From contig JAWOFX010000186.1 of assembly GCA_046497275.1 (NCBI GenBank), forward strand, positions 7,273 through 39,272: a stretch of 32,000 nucleotides of DNA, read 5' to 3'. Origin of the DNA: Promethearchaeia archaeon. Its GTDB lineage: Archaea; Asgardarchaeota; Lokiarchaeia; Sigyniarchaeales; SOKP01. A model generated the notes under the pieces. That model was not told the DNA's origin and ran no database searches. It saw only the letters and a program-made list of their open reading frames with translations. Shown here piece after piece: positions 2,872 through 31,700 of this stretch (positions are counted from its first letter, which is position 1; every line of letters starts with the position of its first letter). The translations under genes were made by a program, and so were the position numbers.

Positions 2872-4020
2872 CTACGTTTTCTCTAATTCCATCTCTCTAA
2901 TTGCCTTACCACTTCTAAATGGGGTATCTTCAACCGATTCTCCTGCGCGATACTTAAATTCCTTTTGAAACTGCTCATTTAGAGACTGAAAAATTAGCGA
3001 AAGTGGTATATTCATAGGACAATTATTCGCACAATTTCCACATTCTACACATCGATCAGCAACATGGGCAATGCGCGTTAACTGATAACTTACATTATCA
3101 ATATTTTTTTCCTTCCGCTTTTTCTGAAGGATACAATCGACGCAATAACATACTGGACAGCCCCTAATACACATTCCGCACATAGTGCATTTCTGAAGCT
3201 GTTCCAGTTTTTCCTTTTGAGATAATTTATTCCATTCTTCGAGATCCTTCGCTCGTTTTTCTTCTGCAGTCTTAAGAATCTCAGCCATTTTGTCTTCATG
3301 TGCTTTTTTAATATCACTTGGTAGTTTTTCAGCCTTAATTCCTGATTTATCGATTAATTCGCCTGCAGCATCACTATGAACTTTTAAGATAATATTTTCA
3401 TCTTCAATAGGAATTCCAATATCACTAATAGAAATGTCTGCGATTATAGGTTGCTTTCGAATACATCTCGAGCAATTATCAGCAATTTCGATTCCTACTT
3501 GTTTTGTCTTTCCATCATCAAGTAAAAATAATAATCCATCATCCGTGATTTTCTCCTTTACGATTTTTGTGGTATCAAGATCCTTCTCGCTTCGAAGTTC
3601 CCGTGAGACATTTAATGTCATTCCGCGATCTTCAATTCCAATGATAAATAAGTTATCTAAATTCACTTGTTTTATTTTGCTCAATTCTATTAATGCTCTT
3701 GTATCGCAAGGTCGAGCTATTAAAGCGATTTTCTCATTTTTCGCTCCATCTGCGCTTGCATGTAAGAATTTAGAGGCAGAATCCGTTCGGGCGTATCCAT
3801 AGGTAATTAAATTAGACACGGGAAAACTTTCAATCTCCTCGGGTTTTTCCCATAATTTTGGAGAGATTGAAAATCGATCTACTTCACCGGATTTTTTACT
3901 TACTTTTACTTCTGCGCCGATTATTTTATCAACCATTCCCTCTTTCAATAAGGTCTTTAACAATGTAGGGAAGTCTTTTTCTTTTATGAGATATTCTGCT
4001 TGTGTTTCCACAGCTTTCAA
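2872..4020 (-). CDS. FdhB-like F420-interacting iron-sulfur flavoprotein (FrhB/FdhB family with C-terminal 2x[4Fe-4S])
   Basis: Motifs IARPCDTRALIEL, CSRC, CTMCGMCIRGCPVCYCVDC and RCVECGNCANNCP are typical of methanogen FdhB. TTG start. Confidence 0.8.
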   Translation of the reverse strand: MKAVETQAEYLIKEKDFPTLLKTLLKEGMVDKIIGAEVKVSKKSGEVDRFSISPKLWEKPEEIESFPVSNLITYGYARTDSASKFLHASADGAKNEKIALIARPCDTRALIELSKIKQVNLDNLFIIGIEDRGMTLNVSRELRSEKDLDTTKIVKEKITDDGLLFLLDDGKTKQVGIEIADNCSRCIRKQPIIADISISDIGIPIEDENIILKVHSDAAGELIDKSGIKAEKLPSDIKKAHEDKMAEILKTAEEKRAKDLEEWNKLSQKEKLEQLQKCTMCGMCIRGCPVCYCVDCILQKKRKEKNIDNVSYQLTRIAHVADRCVECGNCANNCPMNIPLSLIFQSLNEQFQKEFKYRAGESVEDTPFRSGKAIREMELEKT

Positions 4021-4152
4021 CTCGTAATCTTTATAATTTTATAATTTTGAAAAATAATTTATGGTGAGAAACATAAATTCTTAGTTCATATACGTTTCGT
4101 TTCTATTATTTTCCAATTTGATTTTTTATTTTTTAATTTTATTAAATACTTT

Positions 4153-4226
4153 ATGTGTTTAAATGGGGCTTCCATTTCTTCAACAAGATTCTCATTTTTT
4201 CAACCTTGTCTCATTAGGACACACAT
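4153..4226 (-). promoter_or_regulatory. SECIS element, eukaryote-like (kink-turn AUGA...GA core, apical A-run)
   Basis: Minus strand: AUGUGU-gucc-ua-AUGA-GACAAGGUU-gAAAAAAugag-AAUCUUGUU-GA-ag-AAAUGG-aagcc-CCAUUU-aa-ACACAU. GACAAGGUU pairs fully with AAUCUUGUU (two G-U). AA starts 10 nt after AUGA and a GA follows the 3' strand directly. AUGUGU/ACACAU closes the base. It starts about 6 nt after the vhuD stop. Confidence 0.85.
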
Positions 4227-4232
4227 TTAATT

Positions 4233-4652
4233 TTATGAGGAGCTTTCTTTTAAAGGATTTCCACCCAATCCTTTAATAGTATTATAGAATTCTGTGGCTA
4301 CTTCTTTAAACCTTGCGCCTTCAGCAGAACTGCAAAATTCCATTCTAAGTCTCTCAGGTGCGATTCCTGCTGAATTTAACACATCTTTTAGATATTCTAC
4401 GCTACGATACGCAAATTTATTTCCTGTCTCGTAATCACACTCTCCTGGATGTCAGCCGACGATTAATACCCCATCAGAACCCCTTCCGAATGCGCGCATA
4501 ACAAGATCTGCTCCAACTCGTCCGGTACATGGAACAATAATTATTCTATATGCTGTTGGATATTGGGCGCGAATTGTGCCTGCCATATCAGCTCCTCCGT
4601 ATCCTCATTTTCTACAACAAAATGCGATTATCTTAATTCCATTATTTGTCAT
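4233..4652 (-). CDS. vhuD: Selenocysteine-containing MvhD/VhuD-type [2Fe-2S] protein (139 aa, Sec16 and Sec67)
   Basis: Absent from ORF track. MTNNGIKIIAFCCRK(U)GYGGADMAGTIRAQYPTAYRIIIVPCTGRV...GVLIVG(U)HPGECDYETGN...RLRMEFCSSAEGARF...GGNPLKESSS*. TGA at 4605-4607 and 4452-4454 match Cys in the in-window paralog (FCCNWCSYAGAD; TGCHIGDCHY). TAA stop. GAGGT upstream of the ATG. Confidence 0.93.
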
Positions 4653-4665
4653 TTTATTTACCTCT

Positions 4666-6624
4666 TTACTCTGCAATAGGTAGTAATGCATCAATAAATG
4701 CATCATATTGATTATCTTTATAATGTGCTAATTCTATAGCTTTTGAAGGACACAAGGATTCACAAATTCCGCATCCTCTACAGCTAATGATATCCACTTC
4801 TATTAAGTTTTTTCCATTGATTGAAATCGCACCGTAAGGACATGCCTCAACACATTTATAACATTTCGCACATCGTTCATCATTTGGTTGAGCTCGAATT
4901 AGCTCTATTATGTATTCCTCGTTTTTCATCGGGATACTTGCTTCAGAGGCTGCTCCTTTTGCTTGACTTACCGTAAGGTCTATTGATTTTTGGGCTTGAC
5001 AAGAACCCGCAATATAGATTCCCGGAGTTTTTGTTGATATGGGATCTAATCGTGGATGTGCTTCTTTTAGAAAGCCATCCGGAGTCTTTTCCAAATTCAT
5101 CACTTTAGCAATTTCATCTGTACCTTTAGATGGAAGTGATGCTGAAGAGAGTATCACCATATCAAATTCTTTTTCAATGATTGTATCTGTTCCCACCGGT
5201 TCTAATTTAACTATGAGATTTTTTGTTTCGGGATCTTCTTGTATATCTCCCACCATTCCTTTTACAAATAATATGCCTTGATTTCGTGCCCGCCGATAAT
5301 ATTCTTCATACATCTTACCACCAGCACGAATATCTATATAGCATACCATTATCTCAGAATCGGGATACTCTGATTTGATAAGCTTGGAATTTTTTATCGA
5401 AAGATTGCAGCACACCACGCTACAATATTCATGTGTTTTTAAACTTCTCGATCCCACGCAATTAATGAAGAGTATCCTTTTAGGTCGTTCTCCATCAGAT
5501 GGTCGTTTTAAATGTCCTAGTGTTGGTCCGTTTGGTGCGATTATTCGTTCCAATTGTACTTGTGTTATAACGTTATCATATATTCCATACCCATAATCAT
5601 CTCCTTGGTAAAGATCCCAACCAGTTGCAATTATTATTGTTCCTACTTCTAACTCAACAATTTCATCTTGTTGACTAAAATCAATCGATTCATTATCACA
5701 AGCGTCTACACATGCAAAACATTCTACACATGAATCTCGTTCAATGTTAGAAATTGCAGGAACTGCTTGCGCAAATGCAATATCAATACATTTTCGAGCA
5801 GAAAGGTTCTCGTCAAAATAGTTTGGCACATATATAGGACATACATCAGTACAAGATCCGCACCCAGTTCAAAGTGTTTCATTAACATATCGCGCTTTGC
5901 GTTTTACTTTCACGTTAAAATTCCCAATATATCCATCTACATCTACAACTTCACTATATGATAAAATTTCGACGTTTTTATTACGCTCAACTTCTAGCAT
6001 TTTAGGTCCCAAGATTCAGATACTGCAATCATCAGTTGGAAATGTTCTATCAAGTTGAGCCATTCTTCCTCCTATGGTAGTCTCTTTCTCCACTAAGTAC
6101 ACTTTATATCCCTCATTTGCTAAATCTAGTGCAGCATTTATTCCCCCAATTCCACCACCGATTACTAGAGCCTCTGGTTTTACGGATACTTTTTTCGTTG
6201 GAATATCTTCTAATAACCTAGACCTTCCAATACCTGCTTTAACTAATTCAATTGCTTTCTCTGTTGCCTCCTCTCGTACATCGGGATCTTGATGAACATA
6301 AGAACATTGCTCTCTTATATTAACAAATTCAAGATGTCTTGGTGGCAAACCTGCTTCTTTCAAAATATCCATAAATACTGGTTCATGAGTAAGAGGAGTT
6401 CAAGCTGCTAAAACTATTCTATCAAAACCTTTTTCTGCGATCTGTTCTTTCATGAATTCTGCGCCACCAGACGTACACATGTTTAGATATTCGTATGCGT
6501 TTACATTCTCTTCTTTATCAATCTCTTCGACAATCTTCGGTACATCGAGTATTCCTGCCACGTTTACACCTCAGCGACAGATAAAAGCTCCTACGTTTTC
6601 CTTGGTCTGTTCATCATCAGACAT
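4666..6624 (-). CDS. hdrA: Selenocysteine-containing heterodisulfide reductase subunit A (652 aa, Sec18, 75, 203, 252)
   Basis: The ORF-track fragments 6016..6372 and 4666..5829 join in one frame from ATG 6624. TGA at 6571-6573 (FICR-U-GVNVAG), 6400-6402 (LAA-U-TPLTHEP), 6016-6018 (TDDCSI-U-ILGPK) and 5869-5871 (ETL-U-TGCGSCTDVCP), all at conserved Cys positions. FAD motif GGGIGG, CVGSR and CSVVCC, C-terminal ferredoxin domain. AGGAGGT at 6654-6648. Confidence 0.95.
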
Positions 6625-6906
6625 TTTTCTCACTCTTAGAAAGTAATACCTCCTAATATCTTGAGATTTACTTGTTTTTGATTTATAATTATTATTAGTA
6701 TTTATTTTAATTGGTAAAATTAAGATTTGTTCTTAAAATTTGTTCTTATCAAGAATCATTGAATTCTTTAAAATTATCGATATTTCATAATCATCAATCC
6801 AGTAAGATAAAGTCTGAATTTTTTGGCTTTATTTAACTTGAGGATCTTTTTCTGAATTTTTGATCTATTCCATATTTTTTTAATTTGACCTTTCCTATAA
6901 AGTATT

Positions 6907-7230
6907 ATGGAAATTATTGCGATGGGAGAATTACGTGCCTTTTTGAAGGATCAACTCTCAAATTGGAAAGATCCGGTCATCTTCATTAGTTCAGATTTTA
7001 TCCCTGGATGTCCGAAATGTAATAGTAATGCAACTGTTTATTATATTAAATTAACTGAAAGAATATCGATTCCGAATGAACAGAATGTAATAAAAGCAGA
7101 GAAGCATAAATTTCCAATTGATATTTATGTGAAATATCCTTTCATGAAGGGAATACCTCAGAAAATAGTTATAGGGACAAGAGATTCGAGGGGTGGTTTA
7201 GAAATGATTCTAAGACGTGTGATTGATTGA
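6907..7230 (+). CDS. Small hypothetical protein with a CxxC (CPKC) motif
   Basis: 107-aa ORF divergent from hdrA with plausible composition; no family recognised. Confidence 0.6.
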   Translation: MEIIAMGELRAFLKDQLSNWKDPVIFISSDFIPGCPKCNSNATVYYIKLTERISIPNEQNVIKAEKHKFPIDIYVKYPFMKGIPQKIVIGTRDSRGGLEMILRRVID

Positions 7231-7259
7231 ATCTATAGACACAAATATTCAATTAAGTT

Positions 7260-7871
7260 TTATTCGAAGCTTTGATTCTGTTTACTTTTTTGATATTGTT
7301 TTAAGATATTATTTGCGATATCTTGATATTCTGAAATTGCCTTCTGAGAAAATTCTTCTAATAATTTTTCAAAATCCTTTTTCACATTTGCCCATGCTAT
7401 TCTATAATTCAAATAATCCCAATCAATGGAATCAGAGTTTGCAATTAAAATTTGAATAATATCATCAATATCTATCAAAGTTCGATCGGATCTTGCTAGT
7501 TTTGTTAATATGAAATCTTCAATTGATAGAACTCTTATATTTTTGTCGATATGAAATGTTCTCTCTCTCATTTTTTGATCCCAGTCAAATTTATCGCATG
7601 GTTTTAACCAAATCTCAGCTTCATTTTTTTTTCCAAATATTGTGAATAGATCATGATTTATTTTGGGATTTTGTTGTGTTTGAATCCCATATTTAGAGAG
7701 AGTCTCAACTAGTCTATTTAATTTTTTTTGAGATTCAACATATATAGCTATATCTATATCTAATGTAGTTCTACCGACATTATAAGCTGGGAGAGCTAAT
7801 CCACCTATAAGAACGGAGGTAATATTAAGTTTAGATCCAATATTAAAAAAGAGCTCAGTTAGACTCATCAT
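7260..7871 (-). CDS. Nucleotidyltransferase (Pol-beta superfamily, AbiEii/DUF6036-like MNT)
   Basis: Motifs VLIGGLALPAYNVGRTTLDIDIAI (GG...TxDID) and SIEDFILTKLARSDR...DIDDI. Confidence 0.8.
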   Translation of the reverse strand: MMSLTELFFNIGSKLNITSVLIGGLALPAYNVGRTTLDIDIAIYVESQKKLNRLVETLSKYGIQTQQNPKINHDLFTIFGKKNEAEIWLKPCDKFDWDQKMRERTFHIDKNIRVLSIEDFILTKLARSDRTLIDIDDIIQILIANSDSIDWDYLNYRIAWANVKKDFEKLLEEFSQKAISEYQDIANNILKQYQKSKQNQSFE

Positions 7872-8849: not shown

Positions 8850-9770
8850 ATGAATGAATCTAGACTACAGAATTCTAAAACCAGAGAAATAGAAAATAAT
8901 GACAATATTTATCGAGAAGAAAAATGTTGCGAAGATCCAAGGATTGAAAAGGTTCGTGGGGAGGAAGTATGTGTGAATTGTGGCACGGTACATCAAAGAG
9001 ATATTGTTGGATTAAAACAGAGAGCATTTACTTCTGAAGAGGTGGAGAAACGAAGAATAACTGAACCTCGCTGGAGACAATTTGGACCCAGAACTACGAT
9101 TCCTTCTGCTAAAAAAGAGGATAAAATGAGCCCTCAACAAAAATCCCTCTTTTCTCGTTTATCAAAAATTCAAAAATCCTTAATCTCAAGTATTGAGCGC
9201 AATTTCTGGGAAGCACGACCCAAACTTACCATGCTAACCTCAATGTTAAATATTCCTAAATATATAGAGGAAACTGCTTGGAAAATATATACTGAAGCAG
9301 CAAAAAAGAAATTGACTTTAGGAAGAACCATAGATGGATTTGTCGCGGCATCTTTATATGCTGCAATTAGAGTACATGAATATCCACGTATTCTTGATGA
9401 GATATGCGATGCACTTATGATTTCGCGACATAAAGTTATTAAATCACTTGGATTGATATTGAAAAAAATTTTACCTGAATTAGGGTTACGTTATCATCCA
9501 ATAACCCCAAAAAAACTAATTTATCGGTTTGGGAGTGAAGCTGAACTGTCATTAAAAACTCAGAAACAAGCATACAACTTACTTTCAACAACATTTCAAT
9601 CTGGATTACTGATAACTGGAAAGGATCCCCGTGGATTCGCTGCGGCAGCACTCTATATGGCAGCACAATCTGCTTCCGAACAAATTACTCAAAAAAAAAT
9701 GGCGGATATCGCTGGAATCACTGAAGTTACACTTAGAAATAGACTAAAAGATATGCGTAAACATTTATGA
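8850..9770 (+). CDS. tfb: Transcription initiation factor IIB (TFB) paralog
   Basis: Zn ribbon CC...CVNCG, TEPRW..GPRT linker, two cyclin folds (LGRTIDGFVAASLYAAIR; GKDPRGFAAAALY) and C-terminal GITEVTLRNR helix-turn-helix. Confidence 0.93.
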   Translation: MNESRLQNSKTREIENNDNIYREEKCCEDPRIEKVRGEEVCVNCGTVHQRDIVGLKQRAFTSEEVEKRRITEPRWRQFGPRTTIPSAKKEDKMSPQQKSLFSRLSKIQKSLISSIERNFWEARPKLTMLTSMLNIPKYIEETAWKIYTEAAKKKLTLGRTIDGFVAASLYAAIRVHEYPRILDEICDALMISRHKVIKSLGLILKKILPELGLRYHPITPKKLIYRFGSEAELSLKTQKQAYNLLSTTFQSGLLITGKDPRGFAAAALYMAAQSASEQITQKKMADIAGITEVTLRNRLKDMRKHL

Positions 9771-18962: not shown

Positions 18963-20072
18963 TTATTTTGATTTTCTAGAAATCATTTTCCTGAAGAAAT
19001 TCTTTCTTTTTTCTCTCCAATCAGTCTCTTTATCTCTGGGAGGGATATATTGATCAATATATTTTTGTGATAATAAAGTCTCTATCAATTTTTGCCCTGG
19101 TTCCGTTCTGGTAATAATTATCGAATAATTTTCCGGTGCACCTGTGGATCCTACACTTATATCAGAAAATCTACCAGCAAAATCATCACAGACTTTGCAA
19201 TGGGATCTTACAGCAGGGTCTAAATTCTTAATATTAACTTCTAAGGTATCACCTTTCTCACTTTCAACAAAAAAGTTCTTCTTTATATATGTTTTTTTAA
19301 TATCTGAAGGTTTTATTCCTTTATCCTTCCTTATTAACTCATAAAGCGTGGAATACTCAAAGTTTTCAAAACAGAATAAACTGATAATATATTTGACAAC
19401 ATGAGCAGGTTTTATACTGAGCAATTTCATTTTCCTTAAGGCTTTTACTTGACAAGGCGTTCCTACAAAAGCCACACGGATTTGGTCAATGTCATAAATA
19501 CCTTTTTCTTTTTGAATTTGTAAGGGAATATTGTACAAGTCTTTTAATGGTAAAACTTGACTAGATATAGAATATCGTGTTCCGGCAGATTTTAAGAGTT
19601 CCTCTTTGTCAAATATTAATTTTGGTTTTGGGTGAAGTTCCTCATCATATTCAGAAACAACAGCAGCATCGATTTTATTTTTCTCGAATAGATAAGATAA
19701 GATAGTAGTAACTATTCCTCCATCTTGTCCAACCTTATTTATTGCTTCTCTTGTTGTTTTTGCAGCGATTATATCAATTATATGCCCTAATTCATCTTGT
19801 ATTTCAAGATTTTCGACTAATAATTCCTCCAACGTGTCTGTTTGAGGACAAATATAATAACAAAGTCCACATTCTGTGCAATTATCTTCATTTTTTTTTG
19901 ATTTGAATTTAGGAATATATTCATCTAACTTAATCACATCAAAGCTTTGGCTTTCACAATAAGCTACACATGCCCCACATGCGCAACATAAATCTTTTTG
20001 AATTACTTCCTTATCTAAATCTTTAAATGTTTTTACTTCCTCTTGCTCACTATTAGATAATGATTCTGTCAT
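18963..20072 (-). CDS. FrhB/FpoF-family F420-dependent oxidoreductase subunit with N-terminal ferredoxin
   Basis: CCACGACVAYC and CTECGLCYYICP, GQDGGIVT, AGTRYS, AFVGTPCQ, SLFCFENF and CKVCDDF...SDISVG. Confidence 0.88.
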   Translation of the reverse strand: MTESLSNSEQEEVKTFKDLDKEVIQKDLCCACGACVAYCESQSFDVIKLDEYIPKFKSKKNEDNCTECGLCYYICPQTDTLEELLVENLEIQDELGHIIDIIAAKTTREAINKVGQDGGIVTTILSYLFEKNKIDAAVVSEYDEELHPKPKLIFDKEELLKSAGTRYSISSQVLPLKDLYNIPLQIQKEKGIYDIDQIRVAFVGTPCQVKALRKMKLLSIKPAHVVKYIISLFCFENFEYSTLYELIRKDKGIKPSDIKKTYIKKNFFVESEKGDTLEVNIKNLDPAVRSHCKVCDDFAGRFSDISVGSTGAPENYSIIITRTEPGQKLIETLLSQKYIDQYIPPRDKETDWREKRKNFFRKMISRKSK

Positions 20073-20575: not shown

Positions 20576-23500
20576 TTATTCTAAATTAATGCCTGGTAAT
20601 AATTCAATCTGTTTTCTAATCTGAAAATTACTGAAATGTCTCTGATTAATAGCCCCTAATGGACATTCAGCCGCACATGCCCCGCATCCTTTACAGAGTG
20701 CTTTAATTACATGTGCTTTTTTCTCATTGACAGTATAAAGACCAATCTGTTTAGTAATTTCTAACATTTCTATCGCATTGTAAGGACATATCTCTGCACA
20801 TGCACCACATCCTATACATTTCTCCTCATTCACATAACAAGTTATCCCCTCCGTCTCGACTTCTCCTTTAACCATTAAAGAAGCGGCTCTCCCGGCAGCT
20901 CCATATGCTTGTGTTATTGCTTCATCTATCCATTTTGGCCAGTGTGCTCCGCCACATAAGAAAATCCCATCAGTTGCAAAATCAACTGGACGAAGTTTAA
21001 CATGAGCCTCCAAAAAGAATCCATCTTTAGTGGTAGGGACTTTAAGCATTTTAGCGAGTTCATTAGTTCCCCTCCCCGGAATTTCAGGGGTTGCAAGAAC
21101 TAATAGGTCTGTATCATATTCAACTTCACAATTCGCACCAAGATTATTATAATTTATGTGAAATGCTCCATTATTCTCTGAAATCGTTATTTCTTTGATG
21201 GATTTATATCTTTCAAAAGAAACTTTTTTCCTTAAATCACGCCATAATCGCTCAGCATTCAAGTCAGAAAATTGTAATTCTCTATATAGAATATGGATAT
21301 GTGCTTCTGGATTGATATCCAAGAGTTTTTCAATATTTTTAAGCGCTACTTTACAACAAATATTACTACAATAGGTTTTTATAGTCTCACCTTGATTAAA
21401 TTCATTCCGTCTTTGATCCACACATAATATAATTGTAGCATCATTAAAACCTGGTACTTTTGTATCTTGCGTAGCTTCTAATTCATTTTGAGTGAAAACT
21501 TTATTTGGATGCTTTTTAATAGCATCTTTCCATCTATCTGTATCTGATTGACTAGTTCCCGTAGCCACAATGATAGTTCCAACTATGAAATCAAAAGTGT
21601 CTGATTCATTTTGGACATTTTGGGTTTTAATTTCATAATTTCCTACGTATCCGGTTATATCTGTGATTATAGAGCTCGTTAATAAATGAACATTTGATTT
21701 TGTCTTTAAATCATTAATATCCTTCAAAATATCTTGTTTATGCATAGGAATATCATATAAATCAATGAATTCTAAAGAATTCCCTCCTAAACTTGGCTTT
21801 TTCTCAACAAGATATAATTCAAATCCTTGATTAGCAAGATTATGAGCTGCCACTATACCAGCAATTCCGCCACCTATTATCATAGCTGATTTTTCAACCT
21901 TAACTTTGATTTTTTCAAGAGGTTGAAGATTAACGACTTTAGCCAAATACATTCTGATTAAGTCGCAAGCTTTTTTAGTCGCTTTTTCAGGCTCATTATG
22001 GTGTACCCAAGAATCTTGATCTCTAATATTAACCAATTCAAATAAAAATGGATTTAATCCAGCTTCTTTTAAAGTATTTCTAAATAATGGTTCATGAGTT
22101 CTTGGAGTACATGATGCTACCATAAATCTATTTAATTTATATTCTTTAATCATTTCCTTGATTCTCTCTTGAGAATCCGAACTGCATGAATACATATTTT
22201 CTTCGGCATGTGTTACATAAGGAAGCTTAGAAACATAATCAACCACCGCTGAAGTATCAACAACCCCCGCGATATTTATTCCACATTGGCATACAAGAAC
22301 ACCTACTCTTGGTTCATCATCTATACCTACAGGAATTTCTGGGGGATAAACAACCTCTTTTATATTATTAAATCTAACGGGATTGAGTTTTTCACTTATT
22401 TTGGCGGCGCAAGCACTTCCCTCAGCAACCGCTACAGGTATATCTTTTGGTTTCCTTGAATAACCAGTAAAAAATATGTTATTTTCTTCTGATTTAATCA
22501 ATCCCTCTTCATTAATAAAACCAAATTCATTATAGTCAACATTAATGCAATCTAATAAATCATAATAAGAATCATTTGGAAATAAAGCACTTGCTAATAC
22601 AACCATATCATATTCATCATTTTCAACTTTATTTTTATCAATATCTTCATAAAATAAAGTCAATTTACCATTTTGCGGATTCTCCTTAACCAAGGAAACT
22701 CTACCATTAACATAATTTACTCCGTATTCCTCTTTACTTTTTACTATAAATTCATAAAAATTCTTACCTTTTGCTCTTATCTCTGTATTGAATATAGCAC
22801 ATTCAGTATCTGGAGCATGTTCTTTAGCCACGATTGCTTGTTTAGCAGAGGACATACAACAAATTGAAGAACAATATTTTTTACAATCTGGATGATGGAA
22901 ATCTCGCGATCCAACACATTGTAGAAAAGCAATCTTATGAGGATGTTTTTTATCATCGAAACATATTAATTCTCCACCTGTTGGCCCATTAGCAGATAAT
23001 AATCTTTCAAATTGCATACTTGAAAGAACATTTGGATTTGAACCCGCCAGTAGAGAATAAAACTCTGGGTACTGCTGTTCATAACCAGTGGCTATAACGA
23101 TCGCTCCAACATTTATATCAATTTCTTTGGGTTTTTGAGTGAAATCAATCGCGTCTGCTTTACACCCTGTAGCACATAGTTTACAAATTCCATGATTCAA
23201 ATAAAGACATTTGTTTTCATCAATTAAATAGATTGGAGGAACTGAAGAGGGAAATGAGATATGAGCAGCACTACGAGTAGTTAAGTGAGCATCAAATTCA
23301 CTTGGAATTCCTTTTACGGGACAAATTGTAGCACAATCTCCACAACCCTTACATTTTGTCTCATCAACATACCTTGGTTTTCGAATTACTTTCACATTAT
23401 AATTTCCAGCCGTTCCATTAATTTTTTCTACATGTGAATAGGTTAGTAGCTCAATATTAGGATTTCTATATACTTCCACCATTTTTGGAGCTAAAATACA

Positions 23501-23677
23501 CAAAGAACAATCTAACGTAGGAAATGTCTTATCTAATTGTGCCATTGTACCTCCAATTGTAGGCTTTTTTTCTACTAAGTATACTTTAAACCCTAATTCA
23601 GTTAGATCTAAAGAAGTTTGGATACCCGCTATACCAGCACCTATCACTAGAACGGAACTTGATAATGCTTCTGTCAT
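20576..23677 (-). CDS. hdrA: Long, domain-rearranged HdrA-like flavoprotein (1033 aa), all-Cys form
   Basis: Order: FAD module 1 (GAGIAG, TLDCSLC, ferredoxin insert, QCVGSR, CSSICC); HdrA N-terminal-type domain (VCQCG, SCS, ASCTP); FAD module 2 (GGGIAG, CSNICC); C-terminal ferredoxin. Confidence 0.9.
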   Translation of the reverse strand: MTEALSSSVLVIGAGIAGIQTSLDLTELGFKVYLVEKKPTIGGTMAQLDKTFPTLDCSLCILAPKMVEVYRNPNIELLTYSHVEKINGTAGNYNVKVIRKPRYVDETKCKGCGDCATICPVKGIPSEFDAHLTTRSAAHISFPSSVPPIYLIDENKCLYLNHGICKLCATGCKADAIDFTQKPKEIDINVGAIVIATGYEQQYPEFYSLLAGSNPNVLSSMQFERLLSANGPTGGELICFDDKKHPHKIAFLQCVGSRDFHHPDCKKYCSSICCMSSAKQAIVAKEHAPDTECAIFNTEIRAKGKNFYEFIVKSKEEYGVNYVNGRVSLVKENPQNGKLTLFYEDIDKNKVENDEYDMVVLASALFPNDSYYDLLDCINVDYNEFGFINEEGLIKSEENNIFFTGYSRKPKDIPVAVAEGSACAAKISEKLNPVRFNNIKEVVYPPEIPVGIDDEPRVGVLVCQCGINIAGVVDTSAVVDYVSKLPYVTHAEENMYSCSSDSQERIKEMIKEYKLNRFMVASCTPRTHEPLFRNTLKEAGLNPFLFELVNIRDQDSWVHHNEPEKATKKACDLIRMYLAKVVNLQPLEKIKVKVEKSAMIIGGGIAGIVAAHNLANQGFELYLVEKKPSLGGNSLEFIDLYDIPMHKQDILKDINDLKTKSNVHLLTSSIITDITGYVGNYEIKTQNVQNESDTFDFIVGTIIVATGTSQSDTDRWKDAIKKHPNKVFTQNELEATQDTKVPGFNDATIILCVDQRRNEFNQGETIKTYCSNICCKVALKNIEKLLDINPEAHIHILYRELQFSDLNAERLWRDLRKKVSFERYKSIKEITISENNGAFHINYNNLGANCEVEYDTDLLVLATPEIPGRGTNELAKMLKVPTTKDGFFLEAHVKLRPVDFATDGIFLCGGAHWPKWIDEAITQAYGAAGRAASLMVKGEVETEGITCYVNEEKCIGCGACAEICPYNAIEMLEITKQIGLYTVNEKKAHVIKALCKGCGACAAECPLGAINQRHFSNFQIRKQIELLPGINLE

Positions 23678-28761: not shown

Positions 28762-31700
28762 ATGAACCAAAAACCGCAATCAATCACAATTGGAAAATCA
28801 ACAATATGTCCATTTTGTGGAAAAACTTTAGCCTCAAAGTTTTCTAAATGTTATAATATTCACTGTTCAGGAAAAAAATTCAATCTTTATAATTGGGTAA
28901 TATATAGATTAAATCCAGAATTGGGAATTGGTAAAATTATAAAAGAATTAAAAATTCCAACTTCAAAATCTTTGGATGAGGATGATACCTCCTTCATCAC
29001 AAAATATAAAGTTCAATTTCAAGATTCTATAATTAAGATTATCCATCCTGTTGATCTGATTCATTATGTATTTCAAATCAATGATAAGGTTAAGACAAAT
29101 GAAGGAATTGGAGTCATAAACTCTTCTGATTTTCTCATTAAAGACGGAGAGATTTCTTATGAAATTCTATTCTCAAATGGAAAAAGATCGCAAGTTTATG
29201 AATCTAACATTATTTCTCATTTGAAAAAATCTTCAAAATTCGAAATCTCCCAAAAAAAGTTAGATCCTCCTCAAAATTTTCTTATTAAGTACTGGGCATC
29301 CCTTTTTCATTCTTATTACACCTCTCATCAAATAAAATGTATTACTAACTCCAGACTTTCATTAATGCCTCATCAAATCAATGTAGCGCATCGATTATCT
29401 GAGAAATACTTTCCCAGGATGATCCTTGCGGATGAAGTTGGATTGGGAAAAACAATTGAAGCTGGCATTTATATTAAGGAAATGATGGCTCGAAATCTGG
29501 CAGAAAGAATTCTAATTATAACTCCTGCTACCCTTATTAATCAATGGAAATTTGAGTTTTCGAACAAATTCAATATCAAGTTTAAAATATATGATGGCAA
29601 GAAAATTAAAAAATTGCGCAAAAAAGGAAGTCATAAAAGTTCAAATTTATTGAAAAATCCCTTCTATTATGATAATTTAATTATTTGTTCCTTACAATTT
29701 GCGCGCAATCCAAAATATATCAACCTTTTATCTCAAATCTCTTGGGATATAGTGGTCTTTGATGAGGCACATCACTTAAGAAGATATCTGCTTAATATGT
29801 CAACAGGTAGTTATAGGGAAACACTAAATTATAAATTAGGCAGAGAATTAAGTCAGAGCACAGAATCTTTATTATTATTAACAGCAACTCCCTTACAGTT
29901 GCATTCATTTGAACTTTATTCCCTAATTGAACTTGTACACCCGGAGGCATTTGAAAGTTTTAGTGATTTTGAGCATTTTAGAAAAAATATGCCTTTTATT
30001 AGTCTTTTAGTAAAAAATATCTCACAATTAAATAAATTAAACACATTTGAAGTAAAAAACACTATAAAATTGCTTAAAGAACTCAATTATGTCAATCATA
30101 ATATTTCTCTAAATGAATTTGTCAATCAAATGCATGATCCTAATAAGAAAGAAGCAATCTTCAAAAAATTAGAGAAAGAACATACCCTATCAAAATTTCT
30201 TATACGAAACAGAAAAAAAAATGTAATTTCAAGAGACTATATTAATGAACGTATCGTGAAAACTATCTTAGTAAATCCTAAACAGGAAGAGCTTGAAATT
30301 TATAATGAGATCCGTCTATATTTGGCTAAGATTTATAATATGGCTGGGGATCTAAAAAACAGAAATATTGGGCTCGGTTTTGTTATAACTACACTTCAGA
30401 AACTTCTGACCAGTTCGAAGTATGCGTTTCTAAAAAGCCTTGAAAGAAGATTAAAACAAATTAATAATAAGAAGGATCACTTTGATTATATAGAAACGAT
30501 TAAGAAGGAAGACCCTGAATATTTTGAATCGGAATTAGAAGAGAGAACATTAGATAATGGAAAAAAAGATCAGAAATATAACTCTTCAAAACAAATATTA
30601 AATCTGGAAAATCAAGAAAAGATTTTATCAGATTTTTATAAAAAACTTGTGGCAATCCCTTATGATTCTAAATCCGAAAAACTATTAAAACTTCTTAACA
30701 GGATTCATCAGAATAATCCAAAAGAGAAATTAATAATTTTTACTCAGTTTGTAGATACTTTAAAATTTTTGAAAAAGAGAATAGAGAGAGAGAATTCAGA
30801 ATTTTTCGTTGAAACTTTTTACGGTGGGAAGAATAAACAAGAAAAAGCAGAATCAGTAAAAAACTTTAGAGAAAATAACTCCTTTTCAGTGCTTCTATCA
30901 ACAGAGATTGGAGGAGAAGGGCGTAATTTCCAATTTTGTAGAATTTTAATTAATTACGATCTTCCTTGGAATCCCATGAAATTGGAACAGAGAATAGGGA
31001 GACTGGACAGAATTGGCCAAAAATCAGAAAAAATTTATATCTATAATTTTTTTATGGAAGGGACTATAGAAACAGATATTATCTTCGCATTAAATAAACG
31101 AATCAATTTATTTAAGGAATCTATAGGTAAATTAGAACCAATTATCGGAAAAATAGAAGAAGACTTTAAAGACTTAATATTTACTGATGATAAAGAAAAA
31201 CAGAAAAAATTAAGGGAATTCAATAGAAATCTAGATGATCAAATCAAAAAAGCAAATGAGATGGAGATGCAGTTGGATGATCTGCTTATAGATAAAAAAT
31301 CTTTTCAGATGGATGCTTTTATGAACTATTTATCGTGTGAGGATGTAAAATTAACTCACAATGAGCTTTACCATCTTATAGATGCTTTTTTTTCATTAGA
31401 AAATGGCAAATATGGTGAATTAAGCATATTAAATCATTCAAATATCACGAAAAAGGATGATATAAAATATCTTACTAAAATAAGTCTTTCAAACTTCTTT
31501 CTAAAAAAGTCTCGAAAATTTCTTGATCAGCAATATGAAGGAACCTTCGATTTAGAATTAGCAAAAGCAAAAGAGGAGAAAGATTTTTTTGCATTAGGAC
31601 ATCCAATGATAAATGAAATTTTGAAATTTTGCAGGAGTGATATTTTTAATGGAAGTTTTACGAAATTAACTCTTAAAAAACAACATTTACCAAGAGAATT

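Follow-up and report, generated by a model that had tools for sequence, protein, structure and literature searches.

The proposed sharing of one selenocysteine insertion sequence (SECIS) element by two adjacent selenoprotein genes has been on record for Lokiarchaeota since 2016. Mariotti et al. 2016 (PMC4989117) inferred it for HdrA and VhuD, reported five selenocysteine (Sec) positions in the HdrA of Loki, with the canonical one near residue 200, and counted 'up to six UGA codons' per gene pair. They also inferred that HdrA once had a SECIS of its own, which later degenerated in Lokiarchaeota. Huang et al. 2024 (PMC11227280) extended the hdrA-vhuD pairing and the shared element to hundreds of metagenome-assembled genomes (MAGs) of Asgard archaea. 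The published models of this element, lokiSECIS, consist of two stems and an internal loop, and work in M. maripaludis has demonstrated Sec insertion 520-679 nt away from a SECIS of archaeal type (PMC9622424). Here we describe an hdrA-vhuD pair and the lokiSECIS behind it in a 32-kb stretch of contig JAWOFX010000186.1 (assembly GCA_046497275.1), hereafter the window; all positions are those of the window.

A preliminary description of this stretch proposed that a single SECIS after vhuD serves six UGAs in two cistrons. Our analysis indicates that this is probably right. The arrangement is already known, and the proposal is a correct rediscovery; as the point was made in 2016 and has been repeated since, the window adds a further example and structural detail rather than a discovery.

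Genomes and comparative set

The window belongs to a 3.85-Mb Lokiarchaeia genome with 30% GC, whose closest public relatives are MAGs of Promethearchaeota (Lokiarchaeia). For comparison we used 50 orthologous hdrA-vhuD loci (L001-L059) and 17 paralogous pairs of the Sec type, 67 pairs in total. The UGA or cysteine (Cys) state of hdrA codons was compared in the 50 orthologues and in 22 paralogues. The orthologous proteins are 67-82% identical, and their reading frame is intact and conserved through the UGAs in all 50.

In-frame UGAs of hdrA and vhuD

The gene for heterodisulfide reductase subunit A, hdrA, lies on the minus strand at 4666-6624 (ATG 6624-6622, TAA 4668-4666). It has 652 codons, and its frame stays open through four TGAs. 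The product is homologous over its full length to the solved HdrA of M. thermolithotrophicus (PDB 5odc_A, E-value 1.9e-205) and contains the Pfam domains Fer4, Pyr_redox_2 and FAD; all four UGAs align to Cys residues of 5odc_A.

Two of the four codons are fixed. Codon 18 (6571-6573, minus strand), the second Cys of the N-terminal CxC motif and aligned to Cys13 of 5odc_A, is TGA in 50/50 orthologues and in 17/17 sampled Sec-type paralogues. Codon 203 (6016-6018, minus strand), which is the canonical Sec position of HdrA and aligns to the Cys of DCSICIL in 5odc_A, is TGA without exception, both in the 50 orthologues and in all sampled genes of the Sec type. Codon 75 (6400-6402, minus strand) varies, being TGA in 17 orthologues and TGT or TGC in the other 33, with the same flanking sequence in both. 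Codon 252 (5869-5871, minus strand) is the first Cys of the CxxCxxC motif in an inserted ferredoxin domain, and its distribution is taken up below. A further Sec position, 302, occurs in one paralogue group and brings the HdrA Sec positions in our sample to five. Judged by the alignment of UGA with Cys at the canonical position near 200, HdrA is a selenoprotein.

The next gene, vhuD or mvhD (hydrogenase delta subunit, FlpD family), occupies 4233-4652 on the minus strand (ATG 4652-4650, TAA 4235-4233) and has 139 codons, two of them in-frame TGAs at 4607-4605 (Sec16) and 4454-4452 (Sec67). Its product matches Pfam FlpD (E 1e-45) and the MvhD-type chain 8rvu_F (E 1.2e-39). Both UGAs fall on Cys residues of 8rvu_F, and both are TGA in 51/51 related genes. 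By this comparison, VhuD is an FlpD-family selenoprotein whose two UGAs fall on conserved Cys residues and are separated by about 50 codons.

As the preliminary description had noted, hdrA has no 3' untranslated region of its own. A check of the coordinates gave 13 nt between the hdrA stop and the vhuD ATG (4653-4665, minus strand; AGAGGTAAATAAA), which include the Shine-Dalgarno box GAGGU. A spacer of 13-19 nt with a GAGG-type box was found in 49/49 loci, leaving no room for a terminator or a promoter between the two genes. The order is equally constant: vhuD stands directly 3' of hdrA in 50/50 orthologous loci, and Sec-type hdrA was always found immediately upstream of vhuD in the 67 pairs.

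A single SECIS element after vhuD

One SECIS follows vhuD, at 4153-4226 on the minus strand. Its AUGA motif (4214-4211) is 2359, 2188, 1804 and 1657 nt from the four UGAs of hdrA and 393 and 240 nt from the two of vhuD, so that the nearest and farthest distances are those given earlier.

We searched for other elements with two covariance models, both run with filters off. The first, R1, was built from 48 orthologous elements. It scored the SECIS at 61.1 bits (E 5.5e-12), well above any chance level, and nothing else in the window above 13.5 bits. R1 was too narrow, missing the known SECIS of the paralogue L071, and a family-wide model, R2, was therefore built in its place; its 22 elements came from other selenoprotein genes as well as from several paralogue groups of hdrA-vhuD. 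R2 gave the SECIS 49.5 bits (E 6.5e-9), and its next matches in the 32 kb reached 17.3 bits (18985-19029) and 16.5 bits (5059-5105, inside hdrA), with E-values of 0.1-0.2. Two held-out elements with a longer loop or bulge, L117 and L073, were recovered by R2 at 42 and 38 bits, and R2 found no match beside the Cys-type hdrA genes. A strict pattern scan of the window returned one perfect match. Rfam reported no family at the gathering score in the window and no SECIS family at E-values up to 10 in 3900-7300, where all matches were due to chance; the standard SECIS tools likewise find no lokiSECIS (PMC4989117).

The coding sequences were also examined for constraint at synonymous sites, using codon alignments of the 50 orthologues. 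Normalised synonymous-site entropy over the 20 codons past each UGA was 0.72-0.81, compared with a gene-wide mean of 0.74, and no window of strongly lowered synonymous variation was seen anywhere in hdrA or vhuD. This normal variation, together with the identical flanks of codon 75 in its TGA and TGT/TGC forms, argues against a local element of the bacterial type and against a hidden conserved RNA structure inside either gene. Thus Rfam, the pattern scan, R1 and R2, and the synonymous-site test all failed to detect a second SECIS in hdrA, in vhuD or upstream of hdrA, and the earlier statement that there is no other near hdrA holds.

Three other candidates in the window were rejected. The first, at 5100-5063 inside hdrA (16.5 bits, E 0.17), arises from the peptide MNLEKTPDGFLKE, and a core with at least 8 pairs is kept there in 1/50 orthologues. 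The second, at 6794-6764 upstream of hdrA, has an 8-bp stem of A and U only, with a mismatch and no A-rich loop, and was seen by neither R1 nor R2. The third, at 29427-29509, has no selenoprotein open reading frame (ORF) upstream and a folding z-score of 0.05.

The orthologous loci gave the same picture, with one SECIS per locus, always after vhuD: 49 loci at an E-value of 0.02 or better, and the 50th (L041) by pattern. Exactly one clear SECIS stands after vhuD in 50/50 orthologous loci and in 13/17 paralogous pairs (63/67 together), and the remaining four pairs (L113-116) have a weak match at the same place. The genome itself has four Sec-type hdrA-vhuD pairs, whose hdrA genes contain 4, 3, 3 and 2 UGAs; a single SECIS stands after vhuD in every one of them, and the Cys-type hdrA genes have none. 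One SECIS after vhuD per pair was also the rule in five further genomes, except in group L113-116 with its weak match. The search of the own genome with R1 covered 150 of 10,611 candidates.

The elements of L113-L116 (for example L114:3913-3966) are a divergent form of SECIS with a longer apical region, scoring 16-18 bits with R2. The HdrA of this group has four Sec, including the fifth position, equivalent to residue 302.

Structure and position of the element

The whole lokiSECIS comprises an outer stem, a stem-loop with the characteristics of a kink-turn (K-turn) and a side hairpin, and the minimum-free-energy fold gives this three-helix shape. The outer stem, AUGUGU (4226-4221) with ACACAU (4158-4153), begins 6 nt past the vhuD stop. 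The core (4180-4217, minus strand) is the part matched by the covariance models. Here the two pairs CU/AG (4217-4216 with 4179-4178) form the canonical helix (C-helix), followed by the 3-nt bulge AAU, the tandem G.A/A.G pairs (4212-4211 with 4181-4180), a 9-bp stem (4210-4202 with 4190-4182, all nine positions pairable) and an apical loop of 11 nt, GAAAAAAUGAG (4201-4191). The AUGA starts 18 nt past the vhuD stop (3-21 nt in orthologues), and the GA motif is at 4181-4180. The side hairpin, AAAUGG-AAGCC-CCAUUU (4161-4177, minus strand), is in the 3' strand of the junction.

The element is eukaryote-like and has the geometry of the published lokiSECIS (Asgard eSECIS-like type I), namely AUGA, a 9-bp stem, a loop of 11 nt that is A-rich at its start and ends in G, and GA (or AA). 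In 22 diverse elements, the AUGA and GA motifs, loop positions 3-5 (AAA) and the final G of the loop are invariant. The stem is 94-99% paired, and among orthologues its eight upper pairs are 98.9% paired. Two-sided changes occur in 7/8 upper pairs among orthologues and in 9/9 pairs across groups, and the covariation score of the stem was reached by 0/500 shuffles in either set.

The -1b:-1n pair, which borders the 3-nt bulge (NAU) on its outer side, is present in 22/22 sequences as GC, UA, AU or UG, and the first stem pair beside G.A, 3b:3n, is Watson-Crick in 59% of sequences, which is typical of 3b:3n. With its C-helix pair, 3-nt bulge, tandem G.A pairs and non-canonical (NC) helix, the core matches the canonical K-turn in sequence and covariation pattern.

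The position of the side hairpin is occupied by a hairpin in 23/23 diverse lokiSECIS, with GC in or at the edge of its loop in 21/23. A three-helix shape is predicted for most of these 23 elements, and the arm sequences differ: other groups have outer stems such as UUCCGAU/AUCGGAA and CCUCC/GGAGG, and side hairpins such as CCUAU-UGCA-AUGGG and CCCUU-GCG-AAGGG. Stems of at least 5 bp formed in 87% of real against 40% of shuffled sequences for the side hairpin, and in 91% against 59% for the outer stem, a test that discriminates only moderately in such AT-rich sequence. The case for a three-way junction thus rests mainly on the consistent placement of the helices and on arms that differ in sequence between groups. 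From these features we infer that the SECIS is a predicted K-turn within a three-way junction.

Two variations were seen in other loci. In L020 (4573-4611), the core has UUGA instead of AUGA and scores 32 bits with R1; the change may be natural or may stem from faulty sequencing. Certain paralogue groups have the vhuD stop within the SECIS or directly against it (L108:3853-3896; L071:992-1035, L117:949-994 and L118:1013-1056, all three on the minus strand), either as a TAA within the 5' strand of the main stem or as a stop UGA beside or within the AUGA. Where the stop is inside the SECIS, the terminating ribosome must unfold the element.

On its other side, 132 nt past the SECIS and on the same strand, the window has a gene for a FrhB/FdhB-like iron-sulfur (Fe-S) protein (2872-4020; Pfam FrhB_FdhB_C and Fer4). 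In 49/50 loci such a gene comes after vhuD in the same orientation, at 54-236 nt from the vhuD stop (135-236 nt in all but four loci), and no tract of five or more T was found between the two genes in 24/50 loci. Because of this recurrent neighbour, the SECIS may lie between the cistrons of a three-gene hdrA-vhuD-frhB-like operon rather than in a terminal 3' untranslated region.

A probable single element for six UGAs and the alternatives

Taken together, it is likely that hdrA and vhuD form a selenoprotein operon in which one shared SECIS serves all six UGAs. We propose that both genes would be translated from a single mRNA, possibly also carrying the downstream frhB-like gene. The folded K-turn SECIS would be bound by a putative K-turn-binding factor, which would recruit archaeal SelB (aSelB) with GTP and Sec-tRNASec, and looping of the mRNA would bring this complex to ribosomes that have paused at one or another of the six UGAs, 240-2359 nt upstream. 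New Sec sites could then arise through a single TGY-to-TGA change with no local signal needed. An element acting at a distance would in this way explain the flips from Cys to Sec by single mutations, and with them the Sec/Cys variation at codons 75 and 252.

Several points weigh against such sharing. Four successive UGAs in hdrA require a high efficiency per codon, which is not known from any archaeon. A lokiarchaeal SECIS did not work when placed in a foreign host, M. maripaludis (PMC11881835), the one functional test reported so far. Besides the SECIS, hdrA carries a second conserved RNA feature, a hairpin at its start codon. Finally, codon 252 is TGA in this genome alone among the 50 orthologues and 22 paralogues and was seen in a single assembly; Sec252 could be an assembly or strain artefact.

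This last point bears on the alternative that survives best, in which not all six UGAs encode Sec. The TGA at codon 252 in particular could stem from an error at the assembly or strain level or from a recent nonsense mutation, or near-cognate tRNAs could read some of the UGAs; the SECIS would then serve fewer than six codons. Apart from the restriction of this TGA to one genome, a genome of the same genus (G183) has 2 TGAs only in the matching part of hdrA. However, TGA 252 falls exactly on a conserved Fe-S cysteine one step away from TGT/TGC, three other UGAs are already decoded in this gene, and the frame downstream is intact and conserved. Moreover, the HdrA of Loki is reported to have five Sec positions, as many as in our own sample, and a gene pair to have up to six UGAs (PMC4989117). 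We regard this alternative as unlikely.

The start-codon hairpin bears on a second alternative. It has the form GUCUG-AUGAUGAA-CAGAC followed by CAA (6605-6622, minus strand), overlaps the hdrA start codon and is not a SECIS. In 44/46 orthologues both arms are preserved exactly, even though the loops come in 20 versions. The codons of the arms are minority synonyms in the same genes (TCT 26%, CAG 18%, ACC 13%), and in one case a 6-nt loop puts the 3' arm in a different reading frame. Arms kept under these three circumstances point to selection at the RNA level. The start codon of hdrA is TTG in 32/44 loci. In the own genome, 3/5 matches to the hairpin motif are on start codons of Sec-type hdrA, including those of two other paralogues, and in the same family this holds for 16/17 fetched matches.

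Other hdrA groups of the Sec type, with 2-4 UGAs (L071, L112-121 and the g4 orthologues L108-111), have no such hairpin, nor do six Cys-type hdrA genes. The hairpin has neither an AUGA/GA nor a GAA_A motif, and the first UGA lies at varying distances of 51 to 72 nt from it. Its absence from other hdrA groups with several Sec means that it is not required for recoding. On this comparative evidence, the hairpin is a 5' feature particular to one lineage. It probably controls initiation; it is not a second SECIS, nor does recoding depend on it.

Some further observations concern this region. Upstream of hdrA are two boxes that resemble Shine-Dalgarno sequences, at 6649-6653 and about 6631-6637 on the minus strand. 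Matches to the hairpin motif on contigs C151 and C181 and outside the family (f1) are due to chance, and so is a hammerhead-like Rfam match (E 2), which comes from CUGAUGA in the hairpin loop and is found in this genome only.

In the second alternative, hdrA would have a recoding aid of its own that is not a SECIS, with the hairpin (6622-6605) as candidate, and the SECIS after vhuD would not suffice alone. The exact arms, their minority codons and shifted frame, the location of most motif matches on Sec-type starts and the lack of the hairpin in Cys-type genes all speak for it. Yet whole Sec-type groups with up to four UGAs do without the hairpin, it lacks the motifs of known elements and a fixed distance to the first UGA, and the groups that bear it are related, so that its association with Sec may reflect shared ancestry. 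We hold this to be slightly less probable still than a miscounted UGA.

More tentatively, the hairpin and the SECIS could act together. In this lokiarchaeial family, the mRNAs of hdrA genes with several Sec might be controlled from both ends, by the K-junction SECIS at the 3' side and by the hairpin, which would gate or slow initiation; we think this improbable. If it were true, the hairpin would sequester the start codon, mostly UUG, and ribosomes would be admitted only under conditions that allow decoding of the four UGAs, perhaps in response to the supply of selenium or aSelB. Initiation control and recoding would then be coupled in a new way.

That hdrA and vhuD are on separate mRNAs, with the SECIS acting in trans or the hdrA UGAs read without any SECIS, is very improbable: an internal promoter in the AT-rich 3' end of hdrA is conceivable and nothing speaks directly for it, whereas the 13-nt spacer is too short for a terminator and is kept with its Shine-Dalgarno box in 49/49 loci, Sec-type hdrA always precedes vhuD with a clear SECIS after 63/67 pairs and a weak match after four, unaided read-through would be harmful where UGA is a real stop elsewhere, and to our knowledge known SECIS elements work in cis.

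Stop UGAs, Sec machinery and other selenoprotein loci

A SECIS shared by six UGAs has to leave other UGAs alone. The preliminary description named three nearby TGAs as true stops, at 7230, 7855 and 9770. The last of these is borne out by the TFB gene, in which the Pfam TFIIB repeat stops at residue 305 of 306, directly before the TGA at 9768-9770; the other two are plausible only. Genome-wide, UGA ends 217/1555 long open frames. As UGA is also a genuine stop, recoding must be specific to particular mRNAs.

The genome encodes tRNA-Sec (49.4 bits with the Rfam tRNA-Sec model, above the gathering score; aragorn did not flag it), an archaeal SelB of 472 aa with an aSelB_III domain, and SepSecS (381 bits). 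Identical tRNA-Sec genes are at two contig ends, G000:C165:63-181 on the minus strand and G000:C33:11-129 on the plus strand (L066, L064), with aSelB as neighbour on one contig and SepSecS on the other. These two contigs probably join into one cluster of Sec machinery.

Other loci of the genome have lokiSECIS elements too. At L129 (G000:C185:7600-9500), two small paralogous ORFs stand in tandem, at about 729-1106 and 1314-1676 on the plus strand, with one in-frame UGA each (STUTTFFC and GSUSGYFC). Each has its own lokiSECIS, whose AUGA contains the UGA stop, and tandem selenoprotein genes therefore do not always share a SECIS. One of the two weakly matches Pfam Fe-S_biosyn (HesB/IscA-like) at E 9e-5, below the cut-off. 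The two ORFs may represent a family of selenoproteins that is absent from the lists for Asgard archaea. Elements that resemble lokiSECIS and have side hairpins are also present at L130:238-435 (minus strand; G000:C100) and at L123 (G000:C167); one of them follows an ORF of 66 aa with a membrane anchor and GEPSGU, and the other has no clear ORF upstream.

Elsewhere in the window, an open frame of about 1038 aa (about 20603-23668, minus strand) is free of UGA and aligns to HdrA in three segments whose order is permuted. As read from these matches, it is a Cys-type, rearranged HdrA-like fusion protein.

Comparison with known systems

In the texts of PMC4989117 and PMC11227280 we did not find the side hairpin or three-way junction described, nor the covarying C-helix pair that completes the K-turn, nor the start-codon hairpin and the downstream FrhB-like gene.

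Vertebrate selenoprotein P resembles the locus in having many UGAs recoded at a distance by 3' K-turn elements with AUGA/GA motifs and an A-rich apical loop. It differs in being monocistronic with two SECIS elements (PMC4989117), whereas one element would here serve two cistrons, and in its dependence on SBP2, which has not been found in Asgard archaea. The shared-SECIS arrangement bears on how the eukaryotic SECIS/SBP2 system arose.

The SECIS of vhuD in Methanococcales and Methanopyrus belongs to an orthologous gene with the same two Sec positions and the same hdrA-vhuD synteny, and here too an extra stem flanks the AUGA ... GAC/AAC motif. The euryarchaeal elements differ in keeping a GAA_A bulge and GC-rich stems.

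With kink-turns of the Kt-7 type, which are bound by the L7Ae family, the element has in common a Watson-Crick -1b:-1n pair, the 3-nt bulge, tandem G.A/A.G pairs and a 3b:3n pair that is often not Watson-Crick. As in k-junctions, a third helix branches from the strand without the bulge. It differs in being a predicted kink-turn, assigned by sequence and covariation.

Bacterial SECIS elements share the operon context and, as in some of the paralogue groups here, overlap with the end of a coding sequence. They differ in that a hairpin stands right 3' of each UGA; here there is none, and no synonymous constraint follows the six UGAs. Compared with bacterial SelB, the archaeal SelB of 472 aa has no domain found by Pfam beyond aSelB_III, and presumably it is without the bacterial SECIS-binding extension.

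The closest match remains the published Lokiarchaeota HdrA-VhuD (PMC4989117, PMC11227280), with the same gene order, an HdrA with several Sec, a VhuD with two Sec and a single element after vhuD. Relative to those pairs, the locus described here is from another genome of the same phylum, and in our sample it alone has Sec252.

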